A stretch of 29,455 nt of DNA. Source: a virus. Lineage: Duplodnaviria > Caudoviricetes. Shown here in pieces: positions 1,277 through 6,089 of the stretch; position 1 is the stretch's first letter; every line of letters starts with the position of its first letter. The stretch is from the IMG/VR virus record IMGVR_UViG_3300025606_000014, positions 1 through 29,455 of that record. One strand, given 5' to 3'. A program made the position numbers and the translations under genes. A model generated the notes under the pieces. The model was not told the DNA's origin and did not search any database. It was given only the letters and a program-made list of their open reading frames with translations.

Positions 1277-2054
1277 ACTTGTATCCCTTGTCTTGCAAGA
1301 ACATCAGGAAGTCGAGTTCTCCAAAGATGTTATCGCATTCCTCTGCCGTGTTCTTGATGACAATGGATTTATGCCCCACCAATTTTCTGCTGGGTGCGTG
1401 ATGACCGACCAGACGCTCTAGGTCAATATCATCGTGCAGGCCTGGACCCATGTACTCAATCGAGAAGTGCTTGGCAATGTGCAGCGGTGCGAACCGCACA
1501 CCGACAGATTCCAGTTGAGGTCTGAGCAAGCCTGAGAGCTGGACATCTTCGTTGATGAACGGCTGCTGACCATAGAGTTTGTGAACGATGCCGTGTTTGG
1601 CAGGGGCCTGGAGGAACTTGCGGCTACGCAGCGAGAAGCCACCGTTCTGGACAACGATGGGGTCTTTCACCTGAGTCCACGAGAAGCGGAACATAGCCTG
1701 GTCGCCCAGAATGCCCATGTGAGTAGGTGCGCCCACATAGTCATACTCGTAGTACTCGTCTGTGAAGTTAGCCCCGTTAAGGCACCAGCCATCGTCTTGC
1801 ACAACAAGACAGTATTCCGTCTCGATGTAGGCGTGTAGGCAGTACATACAGAACATGGAGTACTGGAAGTAATCCAGCGATGCTGTTTGTTTCCACGCGA
1901 TATGGTCTGGCAAGGAAAGAGGTCTTTCAAGAGAGATTAGCAGACCTCGGCTTCCCGGTAACTGGGTCAGGCTCTCTACAAGGCTTGGAATACTTGCCGC
2001 GCCATCAGTATGGCCGTGGACAGATACGATAGTGAGATCAGTGTGTAGAGCCAC
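1257..2054 (-). CDS. DUF5672-family, glycosyltransferase-like (GT-A) protein
   Basis: Motifs CLVVQDDGW, YDYVGAP, NGGFSLRSRKFL, NEDV and AKHFSIE are typical of DUF5672. Start placed at GTG 2054, overlapping the TerL end. Confidence 0.8.
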   Translation of the reverse strand: MALHTDLTIVSVHGHTDGAASIPSLVESLTQLPGSRGLLISLERPLSLPDHIAWKQTASLDYFQYSMFCMYCLHAYIETEYCLVVQDDGWCLNGANFTDEYYEYDYVGAPTHMGILGDQAMFRFSWTQVKDPIVVQNGGFSLRSRKFLQAPAKHGIVHKLYGQQPFINEDVQLSGLLRPQLESVGVRFAPLHIAKHFSIEYMGPGLHDDIDLERLVGHHAPSRKLVGHKSIVIKNTAEECDNIFGELDFLMFLQDKGYKFEYRLS

Positions 2055-3804
2055 CGTACATCCCGATTTTCTTGAGATAGTTGGATACGTTACGTCCAGC
2101 AGCAATCTGCTCTGGCGTTTGGTTCTCTTGAGCATGAGAAACTTCTTTCGTCAGTCTCATGGCAATTAGTCGAGGTTGAACCTGCTCGGCATAAGCAACA
2201 GCGGCCAGCGCACTGGCGATCACTCTATCATCTTTGCCGCGCCCCGGCGCACCAATAAACCCGCCCTCACGAACGATGCCCTTCATCTCGTCTAGCAAGT
2301 CCATAGACTTGATGTCCATCAACCCACGCTCAAAGTAATCCTTCATGTAGGTCAACATCCGCTCTTTGGTCTGACTCGTAGTCAGGAACCCAATAGAGTT
2401 GGATAACCCGGACATCGTGTCATTACGACGCCAGATGTAGTTCTGCATAGAACCCAGCACATCCATGATGCCGTGACCGGCAGTCCCCTGACTTGCAGCC
2501 AACCTCTTGAGGTTACGCATCTCGTTGATGACCGCCTGACCTGGACCATTGACTTCCAAGTTCAGGGTTGAGTTCTTGTACGCACCGGCAAGGTGAGCAA
2601 TCACCCACGCAAACTGATAGGTGTTCATCTCACTGGTCGCAAACTCAGCAACCTGCTCCATCCCGTTGGCATATACGCGGAACACTTGGATAGAGAATCG
2701 GTCTGCCCAATCGGATGATCCATAAGCAGGGTCAGCACCAATGACGTAGTAGGCAGTGTCAATAGGTTGTTCCCAGACCTTGAGAGTTCCCAACTTCTCC
2801 GTGGACTTCAAGACATCAGTGTCTTGGAACATTGCCCCAAACGCATAGCGGAAACATTCCGGATGAAGTGCACGAGACTTCTTGGCAGCGTCAGTACACC
2901 GGGAGTTTGAGAAGAAGCTCGTACCAGTCATCACGAATGCGTAGTCTTCCGTAGGAGGAAACTCCTGGTACATCAGCGCATCGTCCTTGATCCCCTCGTG
3001 CAGCTTCCATCTCCACCACGCCATCTGCCTGCTGTTGATCTCCACCCCGTACAACTTCTTGATGTCCTTCACCCACTCTTTCTCTTCCCCAGTTAATTTG
3101 CCATCCCAATAAACCTTATAAACATCCGTCTCTGCTTCTACAGAATAAAGCTCATTTCTCCACCAACCACAAAATATTGCTCTCTGTGTTCTAGCCTTTT
3201 TAGCAGTGACATACATATCGTGGAACATATTAAACCCACGAGCAGTACTCTCAAATAAATACAACCTCTGAGGATTGGTCTCGGCAAGAGATGCCAAGAG
3301 AGACGCTAGACCCTCCTCATCTCCCCAACTGGATGTCTCAGTACCATGCAGGTAAGTAATCGCCTTACCGCGCCCCAGAGACCCCTTAGAACGCAATCCA
3401 GCCACCTGATAAAACAACCGACTACGGTTCTTCAAAGATATGTGGTTTCTGTTGTGAGCAATAACAGGTACTTTATATTCCCTGGGTAACCCATCTATAT
3501 ACATAGACAAGGTGCTACGGAACATATCCCTGTTCTCTTCTGTGTCTGTCGTTAATGTACCCTGTAATCCAGGATGTACAAAATGCCAGTAAAGATCTAA
3601 CGCTAAAGAGATAGTAGTTATTCCTAACTGTCTACCCTTTAATATCACAAAGAAATGAATATCATCCTGTAGACCTTTGGCTATCTCATCCATAATATAT
3701 GTCTGAGTGCCTAATAACCTATCCATCTTCCTGAGACCATGTTCCTTAGTCTCTATTTTAAGTTCACTACAGAACTTGTAGAACTGCGCCAGATTAAATG
3801 ACAT
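2038..3804 (-). CDS. terL: Terminase large subunit
   Basis: Walker A VILKGRQLGITT, Walker B-like YLHGTE, ESTARG coupling motif, nuclease YVIGADPA and GKDDRVIA. Start at ATG 3804 (MSFNLAQF). Confidence 0.93.
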   Translation of the reverse strand: MSFNLAQFYKFCSELKIETKEHGLRKMDRLLGTQTYIMDEIAKGLQDDIHFFVILKGRQLGITTISLALDLYWHFVHPGLQGTLTTDTEENRDMFRSTLSMYIDGLPREYKVPVIAHNRNHISLKNRSRLFYQVAGLRSKGSLGRGKAITYLHGTETSSWGDEEGLASLLASLAETNPQRLYLFESTARGFNMFHDMYVTAKKARTQRAIFCGWWRNELYSVEAETDVYKVYWDGKLTGEEKEWVKDIKKLYGVEINSRQMAWWRWKLHEGIKDDALMYQEFPPTEDYAFVMTGTSFFSNSRCTDAAKKSRALHPECFRYAFGAMFQDTDVLKSTEKLGTLKVWEQPIDTAYYVIGADPAYGSSDWADRFSIQVFRVYANGMEQVAEFATSEMNTYQFAWVIAHLAGAYKNSTLNLEVNGPGQAVINEMRNLKRLAASQGTAGHGIMDVLGSMQNYIWRRNDTMSGLSNSIGFLTTSQTKERMLTYMKDYFERGLMDIKSMDLLDEMKGIVREGGFIGAPGRGKDDRVIASALAAVAYAEQVQPRLIAMRLTKEVSHAQENQTPEQIAAGRNVSNYLKKIGMYGGSTH

Positions 3805-3811
3805 GAAATTT

Positions 3812-4060: not shown

Positions 4061-4101
4061 AGTGGTAGACACTCCCTGGTGTCCCTGTAGTTGGAGCGTG
4101 G

Positions 4102-4272
4102 TACAGGTAGTACATACAGGACACTTACCTATATATACATATAGAACAGTAGACTACAGGTAGAACAGTGATCACCTGATCACTTCCCTAACTGATGGTC
4201 TGACAACAGTAGACACTTACCACCTATATATATAGAGACACTGTACAGGTATCTACAGGTAGCTACAGGTAG
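4102..4272 (+). repeat. TACAGGTAG direct-repeat array with TATATA tracts
   Basis: Copies at 4102, 4155, 4244 (TACAGGTAT), 4254 and 4264, plus partial TACAGG at 4115. Also duplicated AACAGTAGAC (4145, 4205), GACACTTACC and CCTATATATA. Confidence 0.9.
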
Positions 4273-4384
4273 ACTACTGTATAGATACACATTAGGGTTT
4301 CCTCTAATATAAATAGTGGATTTTATCCGGTAATATCTTATCTAACGGTTAACGGTTAACCGGTAAACAGAGAGAGGAAACAAA

Positions 4385-4552
4385 ATGAACTTTGTGCATA
4401 TTTTTAAGGTTAGAGGTGGTTGGCAGGTTCTCGTCACTAGCAGTCCTTGTCTGCGCGGTGGTGACAGTGTGGTTGCTGAGGTGGTACTGGCAACCAAACG
4501 TGACGCTAAGAGGTTTGCGAAGTCTACCGGTGCAACGCCGTGGAACTTCTGA
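4385..4552 (+). CDS. Small hypothetical early protein (55 aa)
   Basis: Not in the ORF track. GAGAGGAAACAAA RBS then ATG: MNFVHIFKVRGGWQVLVTSS...AKRFAKSTGATPWNF*. Confidence 0.75.
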   Translation: MNFVHIFKVRGGWQVLVTSSPCLRGGDSVVAEVVLATKRDAKRFAKSTGATPWNF

Positions 4553-4562
4553 TCTAGGTTCA

Positions 4563-4614
4563 ACGCGAAACCCTCTCCGGAGGGTCTACCGGTAGTGCCG
4601 GTACTGATGAGCGT
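4563..4614 (+). ncRNA. Hammerhead ribozyme, type II (stem II open)
   Basis: ACGC-GAAA-[CCCTC tccg GAGGG]-TC-[TACCGG tagtg CCGGTA]-CTGATGA-GCGT. Complete core (CUGAUGA, GAAA, GUC cleavage triplet) with three Watson-Crick stems. Predicted cleavage after C4586. Confidence 0.93.
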
Positions 4615-4641
4615 AATCAAATTATATCTAGAGGGTTCACA

Positions 4642-5319
4642 ATGGCTAAGCCTAAACTGTCTGTCATCACATCATCCATCCGGATTTCTGTCACATCTAA
4701 GCTTGACGGGATTAGATCATGGAGTCTGCAAGCTCTGGAAACCTGTCCGGGTTCTGTCGGACCGGACGGCGAGCTTGTTGCAGCGTGCAGTGGCTGTTAC
4801 GCCACGACAGGCAATTACGTTTTCGCAAACGTGAAAGAACCTAGACTTGCAAACCGGGAAGATTGGAAACGGTCCGCATGGGTTGACGATATGGTCGCAA
4901 GCTTGAATAAAGATCGGTTCTTCCGTTGGTTCGACAGTGGCGATATGTACGATCTGAAGCTTGCCAAGAAGATCCTTGCAGTGATGGAATCCACGCCATG
5001 GGTCTCGCATTGGTTGCCTACTCGCATGATGAAATTTAAGAAATTCCAGACTGTACTTGCTGCCATGCAAGCTCTACCGAACGTCATGGTCCGGTTTTCT
5101 TCCGATAGCGTATTCGGAGAGTTTGACGATCGACACGGGTCCGTGATCGTGCCCGATCCTGAGTCTGTTCCCGAGGGTACGAAACTCTGCGAGGCCTACA
5201 AACATGGCGGGAAGTGCAATGGTTGCCGTGCCTGCTATGACAAGTCTGTCGAGGTCGTGGCGTACCCTGCACACGGTCGGAAGATGGACAAGGTCATCAG
5301 AATCGCACTAGCTGCGTGA
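4642..5319 (+). CDS. GP88-family (mycobacteriophage gene product 88-like) Cys-rich, radical-SAM-related protein
   Basis: TSKLDGIRSWSL...TCPGS...ACSGCYA, FRWFDSGD, HWLPTR and C-terminal CEAY...CNGCRACYD are GP88 hallmarks; GAGGG RBS. Confidence 0.85.
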   Translation: MAKPKLSVITSSIRISVTSKLDGIRSWSLQALETCPGSVGPDGELVAACSGCYATTGNYVFANVKEPRLANREDWKRSAWVDDMVASLNKDRFFRWFDSGDMYDLKLAKKILAVMESTPWVSHWLPTRMMKFKKFQTVLAAMQALPNVMVRFSSDSVFGEFDDRHGSVIVPDPESVPEGTKLCEAYKHGGKCNGCRACYDKSVEVVAYPAHGRKMDKVIRIALAA

Positions 5320-5323
5320 CCTA

Positions 5324-5358
5324 TTGACAGTAGGGGTTATCTACCTGATAATCCCTAC
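5324..5358 (+). promoter_or_regulatory. Sigma70-like promoter embedded in an inverted repeat
   Basis: TTGACA(5324-5329)-N17-GATAAT(5347-5352). Arms GTAGGGGTTATC/GATAATCCCTAC (11/12 match). CTACCTG at 5341-5347. Confidence 0.65.
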
Positions 5359-5719: not shown

Positions 5720-5792
5720 CCTCAACTGATCCCCTTTCGCCTCACTGAGAGGCTTCTATCGCCCCTTACGGGGTATCTTTGGAGTGTTGACT

Positions 5793-6089
5793 ATGTTTTA
5801 TGAAGAAATCCAAGCAAAGATCGCGGATCTGCAAGCCCAGGCGGAGCGTGTCAAGCGTGAGGAAAAACAGCAAGCTATCGACGCAGCTCGTGCCATGATC
5901 AGTAGCTACGGGATCACGGCTAAGGATCTGGGGCTGGAAAAGGCTCCCAAGGGTAAGGCCGGTCCCAAGCCTGGAGGCAAGATCCCGCCCAAGTACAAAG
6001 ACCCTGTGTCTGGTGCGTTGTGGTCTGGCAGGGGTAAAACCCCGAAATGGTTTAACGGATCGTTGCCCCTGTCTGTGTACGCTATCTAA
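5793..6089 (+). CDS. hns: H-NS family nucleoid-associated silencer
   Basis: N-terminal coiled coil, YGITAKDLG, and the DNA-binding motif PKYKDPVSGALWSGRGKTPKW; GGAG RBS before ATG 5793. Confidence 0.92.
   Translation: MFYEEIQAKIADLQAQAERVKREEKQQAIDAARAMISSYGITAKDLGLEKAPKGKAGPKPGGKIPPKYKDPVSGALWSGRGKTPKWFNGSLPLSVYAI

Follow-up and report, generated by a model that had tools for sequence, protein, structure and literature searches.

A type II hammerhead motif upstream of a phage gp88 gene and its exchange for a long, RNase III site-like hairpin in close relatives

In T4-type phages, shuffled small early genes are bordered by promoter-early-stem-loop cassettes, reusable modules that carry a 5' hairpin. 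Hammerhead ribozymes of phages and prophages flank individual genes or small gene blocks, whose identity is variable and for which a processing role has been proposed, and clustered phage hammerheads cleave in long transcripts (Perreault 2011, PMC3088659). The role of bacterial and phage hammerheads is described as open in PMC6765202, where processing of polycistronic RNA is suggested and ‘additional work needed’. The polycistronic RNA of T7 is provided with five RNase III signals (PMC3867540). The site of the E. coli enzyme, as characterised in PMC1540722, comprises an 11-pair helix above the cut, a distal box of U-A and U-G with a stringent need for U-G, and a proximal box with the optimum G-C, A-U/U-A, A-U and A-U/U-A; the natural T7 site R1.1 has U-C at proximal position 4, cutting leaves a 5'-phosphate, and binding without cutting is also documented. 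Removal of one pair at the helix top is tolerated, and removal of two takes away the last pair of the distal box (PMC8708148).

The locus presented here brings together a hammerhead and a hairpin of the second kind. The window, which is the whole stretch of DNA that was analysed, corresponds to a linear viral record with a length of 29,455 bases and an estimated completeness of 85%, and our searches found no cultured close relative of this phage. On its + strand, a type II hammerhead motif is located 10 nt past the stop codon of a 55-aa ORF and 27 nt ahead of a GP88-family ORF (Table 1); the designation of the region as early and of its cassette as first is deduced from gene order. The motif resembles the described type II hammerheads (RF02276, PMC3088659) in its core, its open stem II, its place between short variable phage genes and the proposed processing. 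Hammerheads between variable phage genes are known already; new is the allelic swap with an RNase III-like hairpin in relatives, since the sections of PMC3088659 used for our comparison describe no replacement by a non-ribozyme element. A literature search, mostly of journals outside subscription, found no paper on an exchange of hammerheads and RNase III signals; the compared sections of PMC10085705 do not cover the relatives' hairpin, and the motif and GP88 terms are absent from one of its supplements. Hammerhead and hairpin are best read as processing signals of the T7 kind that can stand in for each other, the former acting without protein and the latter depending on the host. With a probability of roughly 65%, the function of the hammerhead is to process mRNA at a cassette boundary without the help of a protein, and relatives fill the same slot with a hairpin that is predicted to be cut by host RNase III.

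Table 1. Coordinates of the hammerhead locus and neighbouring features in the window
Feature	Position	Strand	Basis
Terminase large subunit, divergent from cassette array	2038..3807	-	Pfam PF17289 (weak); 77% to two uncultured phage records
Predicted -10 (4331-4336), predicted start (~4344) and leader hairpin (4346-4362)	4331..4362	+	Comparison with promoter regions of relatives; hairpin fold
55-aa ORF, first cassette; one of many unrelated small genes in this position	4385..4552	+	Sequence; locus maps
Linker past the stop codon, with A4562 as candidate partner of U1.7	4553..4562	+	A 5' of stem II in 18/18 cores
Motif of a type II hammerhead ribozyme; loops close stems I and III, stem II is open	4563..4614	+	Sequence; RF02276; clade cores; pair counts
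Predicted self-cleavage site, 3' of GUC	4586..4587	+	Hammerhead consensus
Stem I hairpin, predicted 5' end of gp88 mRNA; U4593 is position 1.7	4587..4603	+	Product pairing; clade cores
A/U-rich spacer with Shine-Dalgarno-like AGAGGG (4630-4635)	4615..4641	+	Sequence; similar spacer after both element types in relatives
GP88-family ORF, 225 aa	4642..5319	+	Pfam PF17338, E 8e-29; phrog_1392
Sigma-70-type promoter-like site just past gp88	5324..5352	+	11/12 matches
H-NS-like ORF; in most mapped relatives it delimits the variable cassette array on the right	5784..6089	+	Pfam PF00816

All components of the motif can be read from the sequence. Stem II (4563-4566/4611-4614) encloses GAAA (4567-4570), stem III (4571-4575/4580-4584) with a UCCG loop, GUC (4584-4586), stem I (4587-4592/4598-4603) with a 5-nt loop, and CUGAUGA (4604-4610), in which G4606 corresponds to core position G5. 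CUGANGA, GAAA and NUH are accordingly present in type II order, together with three helices of which stem II is open. The initial annotation had described a complete type II hammerhead in sense orientation upstream of gp88, with a leader of 55 nt to the gp88 AUG; every coordinate of its core and stems was correct, the motif lies on the + strand between the two ORFs, and counting from 4587 returned the same 55 nt. The Rfam comparison that it had recommended yielded a match to RF02276 at 4563-4622 with 39.8 bits (gathering threshold 37; E 6.1e-5), the sole Rfam match in the window, and a descriptor for hammerheads of types I-III found one site in the window and none in six block-shuffled windows. 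The minimum free energy (MFE) structure of 4545-4645 contains all three stems, and its folding z-score by itself is unremarkable (-1.36). Judged by its sequence, the type II hammerhead motif at 4563-4614 is real, and as a ribozyme by itself it appears ordinary. The linker positions 4558-4562 are able to pair with 4608-4612, which results in a competing inactive MFE fold. Via this helix, the pairing probability of stem II is lowered to 0.08-0.54 in five contexts of the window (0.25, 0.24, 0.54, 0.08, 0.39), and stems I and III reach 0.77-1.0; in the local context of 15 of the 21 junctions in relatives, most of which have a different linker, stem II attains at least 0.67.

Protein and pattern searches provided 18 distinct hammerhead cores of the clade, and their core conservation is given by construction because the core was part of the search pattern. 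Stems I and III exhibit two-sided changes, stem III also a change in length, and loop III is UNCG or GNRA in 18/18 cores. Stem II is invariant and never covaries, its sole broken pair being found in locus L240, where the hammerhead at 842-893 carries an A in place of G10.1, so that the first stem II pair is lost and this copy is possibly impaired. In a MAFFT alignment with stem III misaligned in five long-stem rows, 97.8% of the cells are paired and nine are changed on both sides, which none of 500 shuffles equalled; the structure-aware counts are those of the 18-core table. Loop I occurs in seven sequences, but its first base is a U (position 1.7) in 18/18 cores, and an A directly before stem II is equally constant. 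A U1.7-A Hoogsteen contact has been documented for a hammerhead with a closed loop II (PMC11875169). The U and the A of the clade sit at the positions of this contact, and we infer by analogy that it may also be used with an open stem II. The majority of type II hammerheads harbor a pseudoknot between loop I and the tail (PMC3088659), whereas inspection of the seven loop I sequences revealed no consistently complementary tail; the clade appears to differ from the published examples in the lack of a consistent pseudoknot and has an invariant U1.7 and A beside stem II instead. Positions 4593-4596 of the window could pair with 4621-4624, but L005, which has an identical loop, breaks that pairing (by inspection).

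The conservation of the slot itself was followed with gp88. A protein search of 48 of the 64 parts of the data returned 596 confirmed stretches, of which the best 80 were used, and 19 loci with 79-100% identity, picked by protein alone, form the close set. Their slot upstream of gp88 holds a hammerhead in seven cases, an unrelated long hairpin in eight, a promoter leader in three and a plain ribosome-binding site in one; L001 equals the window over gp88 and the upstream stretch, and the upstream stretches of L003/L004 and of L015/L019 are repeats. Loss of the core in close relatives had been named beforehand as evidence against the hammerhead. It does occur, with 12 of the 19 close loci being devoid of a hammerhead, but the hammerhead has mostly given way to a different structured element, which speaks for the slot having a function. 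One example is the comparison of the window with L249. The two align without interruption over the promoter and the 55-aa gene up to its stop codon, where the match is lost, to be regained from the A/U-rich spacer onwards; only an element of ~60 nt is exchanged, and both have the promoter, the 55-aa gene and gp88 in common. The pair represents a natural swap experiment with the same promoter, the same upstream and downstream gene and a different element in between, and makes the function of a phage hammerhead testable with one pair of natural alleles. If self-cleavage and an RNase III cut affected gp88 RNA alike, phage hammerheads would be stand-ins for T7-type processing sites, and the question would become when independence from the host enzyme pays.

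The same exchange recurs in other gene contexts. We compiled 46 non-redundant junctions with 21 hammerheads and 25 hairpins, numbers that are not frequencies since the junctions were found by pattern. Both elements begin -2 to +17 nt from a stop codon and end 23-31 nt ahead of the next AUG. Three families of upstream genes, assigned from N-terminal sequence only, precede gp88 with either element: the 55-aa gene (hammerhead in the window and L005, hairpin in L249), a 61-aa gene (L018 versus L003, L013 and L095) and a gene of 73-78 aa (L009 and L017 versus L002 and L015). The maps of 40-odd loci display a mosaic array of small genes that is bounded by a conserved promoter region and the H-NS-like gene, and many junctions of this array are without any element (L010, L093, L238). 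The T4-type cassettes mentioned above are promoters, whereas the internal borders of the array are predicted RNA cutting signals. A specific linkage of hammerhead and gp88, whose recurrence the initial annotation had proposed to examine, was rejected. Only seven of the 21 hammerhead junctions directly precede gp88, as do 14 hairpin junctions; 11 of the remaining hammerheads are located before four other genes and three before an unassigned gene. The type II descriptor found no match in 61 distant gp88 loci, and neither label clusters on a tree of 26 gp88 genes, with 11 changes for the hairpin (shuffled mean 9.0) and five for the hammerhead (mean 6.3; 78 of 500 shuffles as low). This tree is poorly resolved, and its starred branches force at least 4 (hairpin) and 2 (hammerhead) changes.

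The long hairpin that replaces the hammerhead is a uniform structure. All 22 sequences that were folded give one hairpin of 24 positions, of which 22 are pairs (96.3% paired) and two are fixed 1x1 mismatches. Covariation is pronounced, with eight pairs and 38 cells changed on both sides, which was reached in 0 of 500 shuffles and is far above slid controls. The hairpin is very stable (z -4.4), its upper stem is free of indels, its loop is of the GNRA type in 20 of 23 copies, and hardly any variation is seen in its basal and 3' parts. When folded by itself, the 3' arm forms a second hairpin of 5-6 pairs. Rfam gave nothing at gathering level in eight hairpin loci and nothing to E 10 in L081 (1000-2600). 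A wider family was sought with a two-block search of viral data (120 stretches, 25 of 64 parts) and of metagenomes (40), both of which led back to this clade, plus stem-less matches, and the early region of the window contains no comparable long hairpin. Two candidate identities were discarded: the hairpin lacks the CUGANGA block expected of a non-circular hammerhead permutation, and an integron attC-like site is contradicted by end boxes that are not conserved by inspection and by G-U pairs and GNRA loops, which point to + strand RNA.

A comparison with RNase III signals was made for 23 distinct copies, with one chance match dropped and the partial L247 uncounted, in a box register deduced from the numbering in PMC1540722 and a statement in PMC8708148. 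The length of the hairpin corresponds to roughly two helical turns, and 11 pairs form the helix above the predicted cut. In this register the distal box follows the E. coli pattern, with U-G in 22 of 23 copies and a preceding U-A in 17 (C-G in six). At the proximal box, position 2 is U-A in 23/23 and position 4 is A-U in 22/23, the exception being a C-U mismatch, but position 1 is G-C in only 5/23 and position 3 is A-U in 0/23, departures from an E. coli optimum that may not be that of the host. G-C pairs are present in the lower half, at positions that would be antideterminants. Seven of the eleven upper pairs change on both sides across the stem alleles and four are essentially fixed; three of the latter, namely the U-G of the distal box and positions 2 and 4 of the proximal box, are the pairs of greatest importance to the E. 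coli enzyme, a coincidence with a chance of 0.024 if positions were random, and these three pairs occur together in one of 49 background hairpins. The box counts are not independent because the 23 hairpins descend from one ancestor with about four stem alleles. The hairpin thus resembles T7 early signals such as R1.1 (PMC1540722, PMC8708148, PMC3867540) in its intergenic location, the 11-pair helix under a GNRA loop, the distal-box U-A/U-G and A-U type pairs at proximal positions 2 and 4. As far as these sources describe them, it differs from the T7 signals in proximal positions 1 and 3, the 1x1 mismatches of its lower stem, the second hairpin in the 3' arm and the exchangeability with a ribozyme. 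Taken together, the hairpin fits the RNase III rules in part, which is good circumstantial evidence for a site that is predicted to be cut.

The two elements could act as follows. The RNA of the window would start near 4344 with a 5' hairpin and be cut by the hammerhead at 4586/4587, leaving an upstream product in which the RNA of the 55-aa gene is terminated by the stem III hairpin and a cyclic phosphate, and a gp88 RNA that begins with the stem I hairpin. For the hairpin allele, the RNase III cut would fall in the 5' arm, at a distance of 11 pairs from the tetraloop, possibly accompanied by one in the 3' arm with an offset of two bases. A cut in the 5' arm would place an 11-pair stem at the start of the RNA, a cut in the 3' arm the second hairpin, and the G-C pairs below may restrict the enzyme to one arm. 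In folding predictions, pairing of the gp88 product sets in at the very first base (0.82, 0.98, 1.0), which supports at the level of a model the initial annotation's proposal of a processed polycistronic RNA with a hairpin-capped 5' end. Both products of the hairpin allele are predicted to be 5'-paired in most junctions, and hairpins are likewise present at the start of the promoter leaders. All three occupants of the slot, promoter leader, ribozyme and hairpin, are thus likely to yield a message capped by a hairpin, which points to stability rather than to translation control. RppH requires unpaired 5' bases (PMC8565310), and the 5' pocket of RNase E is modelled not to accept base-paired ends, with direct entry also being possible (PMC2948425). 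The 5'-OH, which the initial annotation had tied to stabilisation, is not essential if RNase III with its 5'-phosphate (PMC1540722) does the same job in relatives, and may at most be an extra. Each small early gene would likely obtain its own end-protected RNA and half-life, as in T7 early RNA. Out of 24 listed RNA runs, available as assembled contigs only and with shares of 0.05-0.09, six were examined. Two (X7 and X16) have a contig that spans the hammerhead of a relative and extends for at least 255 letters to either side, which could represent uncut RNA or DNA carry-over.

Several alternatives have to be weighed against RNA processing by both elements. The long hairpin could stay uncut and protect the upstream gene as a barrier to 3' exonucleases or as an RNase III binding site, the hammerhead then being a substitute in 3'-end protection only. 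We consider this unlikely: its beginning at the stop codon, its high stability, the two proximal-box positions off the E. coli optimum and the documented binding without cutting (PMC1540722) are all compatible with it, but a plain barrier leaves unexplained why U-G, U-A and A-U pairs are invariant and fixed in their spacing, why the stem keeps its length, and why the 3' arm contains a second hairpin that is formed only once the 5' arm has been released. Its occupation of a ribozyme's slot, the near invariance of its basal and 3' parts and the absence of Rfam matches to E 10 might instead indicate an undescribed self-cleaving ribozyme with a pseudoknot between the six 5' bases and the loop of the 3' hairpin. 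The single long hairpin obtained for every folded sequence offers no conserved single-stranded core, the invariant bases are accounted for by double pairing duties and RNase III boxes, and relaxed searches (25 of 64 parts of the viral data, and metagenomes) brought up no diverged family beyond this clade, all of which makes a new ribozyme very improbable. An equally slender chance is given to the more far-reaching version that the hairpin belongs to a new ribozyme class sharing ancestry with hammerhead stem I, in which case one population would maintain two ribozyme classes as slot alleles.

Doubts may also be directed at the hammerhead of the window, which could be slow or conditional if the linker 4558-4562 pairs into the core, so that cutting would need ribosomes finishing the 55-aa gene or would be rare. 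The low stem II probability in comparison with the relatives is in line with such an allele, but the identical linker accompanies an intact core in L005 and L219, and the energy model includes neither core nor tertiary contacts, with U1.7 and the candidate A partner being retained in the window; we regard this reading as quite unlikely. Both elements might mainly be cassette borders at the DNA level, used in recombinase shuffling of the small genes with RNA cutting being incidental. The array is highly mosaic, YqaJ- and RecT-like proteins are encoded in the window (profile matches), and hammerhead and hairpin have a stretch of 11/12 bases in common, but the RNA structure is conserved on one strand, as documented by two-sided changes, G-U pairs, GNRA/UNCG loops and the intact catalytic core, and half-and-half hybrids were absent among the pattern matches, which renders a role as DNA borders improbable. 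Finally, cutting could unmask the downstream ribosome-binding site, given that in one context the uncut window RNA has its Shine-Dalgarno region covered by pairing of the flanks and that T7 attains optimal protein output only with RNase III maturation (PMC3867540). The calculated opening cost, however, is unchanged by cutting in the window (8.3 to 8.5 kcal/mol), and nearly so at 18 hammerhead junctions (median 5.85 to 5.95 kcal/mol; 2/18 improve by more than 1) and 25 hairpin junctions (5.7 to 5.3 kcal/mol), leaving unmasking with hardly any credibility.

The common stretch comprises window positions 4590-4601 (stem I and loop I) and ~1494-1505 of L081 (3' arm of the hairpin), and two of 1500 shuffles were as good; it may reflect common ancestry, conversion or chance. 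Five loci of the clade possess two elements (L081, L219, L220, L226, L240), and each has one hammerhead and one hairpin, never two alike. This could weakly suggest an avoidance of direct repeats, considering that there are about three independent arrangements and that the distant L063 has two hammerheads. The latter are part of three type I descriptor matches in distant loci, namely L063 (2619-2671 and 2919-2971) and L055 (~2428-2480), one of them directly before gp88. In a distant phage, a small gene lies between such motifs, which are placed ahead of gp88; their scores are below the Rfam threshold. Other long hairpins of 14-20 pairs are located within 45 nt of the gp88 match in L030-L032, L044-L045, L048, L049 and L072, in a scan of 53 of the 61 distant loci that ran to L073, and some of them may be RNase III-type sites. 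Among 65 terminase loci of sister phages (77-81%), many of which may stop short of the early array, there was one weak descriptor match with a stem II of two pairs, which we took as chance, and 13 of these loci were devoid of a ribozyme at Rfam gathering level.

The surroundings of the slot provided further observations. The predicted promoter with its -10 at 4331-4336 was missed by a consensus promoter scan and has no recognisable -35, and its leader hairpin shows a compensatory change in comparison with L005/L249. The promoter allele (4289-4343), which is shorter than those of other relatives, travels with the 55-aa gene in the window, L005, L219 and L249. Short degenerate repeats between terminase and early promoter (4100-4290), with similar tracts in relatives, are possibly origin or packaging signals. 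An intrinsic terminator was not found on the + strand between 3700 and 6500. The 55-aa ORF has no match in Pfam or PHROG, and a PDB search with the GP88 ORF gave no relative. The gp88 protein contains C35-x13-C49-x2-C52-YA, which we take to be reminiscent of a radical-SAM iron-sulfur motif, and relatives have in its position a 226-aa protein with a match to phrog_2554 and a weak match to phrog_1392 of gp88. The Betaproteobacteria-1 RNA (RF02932, ~96 bits), absent from the window in the Rfam scan, is located in L002 (4532-4647), L014 (4893-5008), L016 (6377-6492) and L181 (2491-2610), and its presence in three close relatives provides a hint at the host group.
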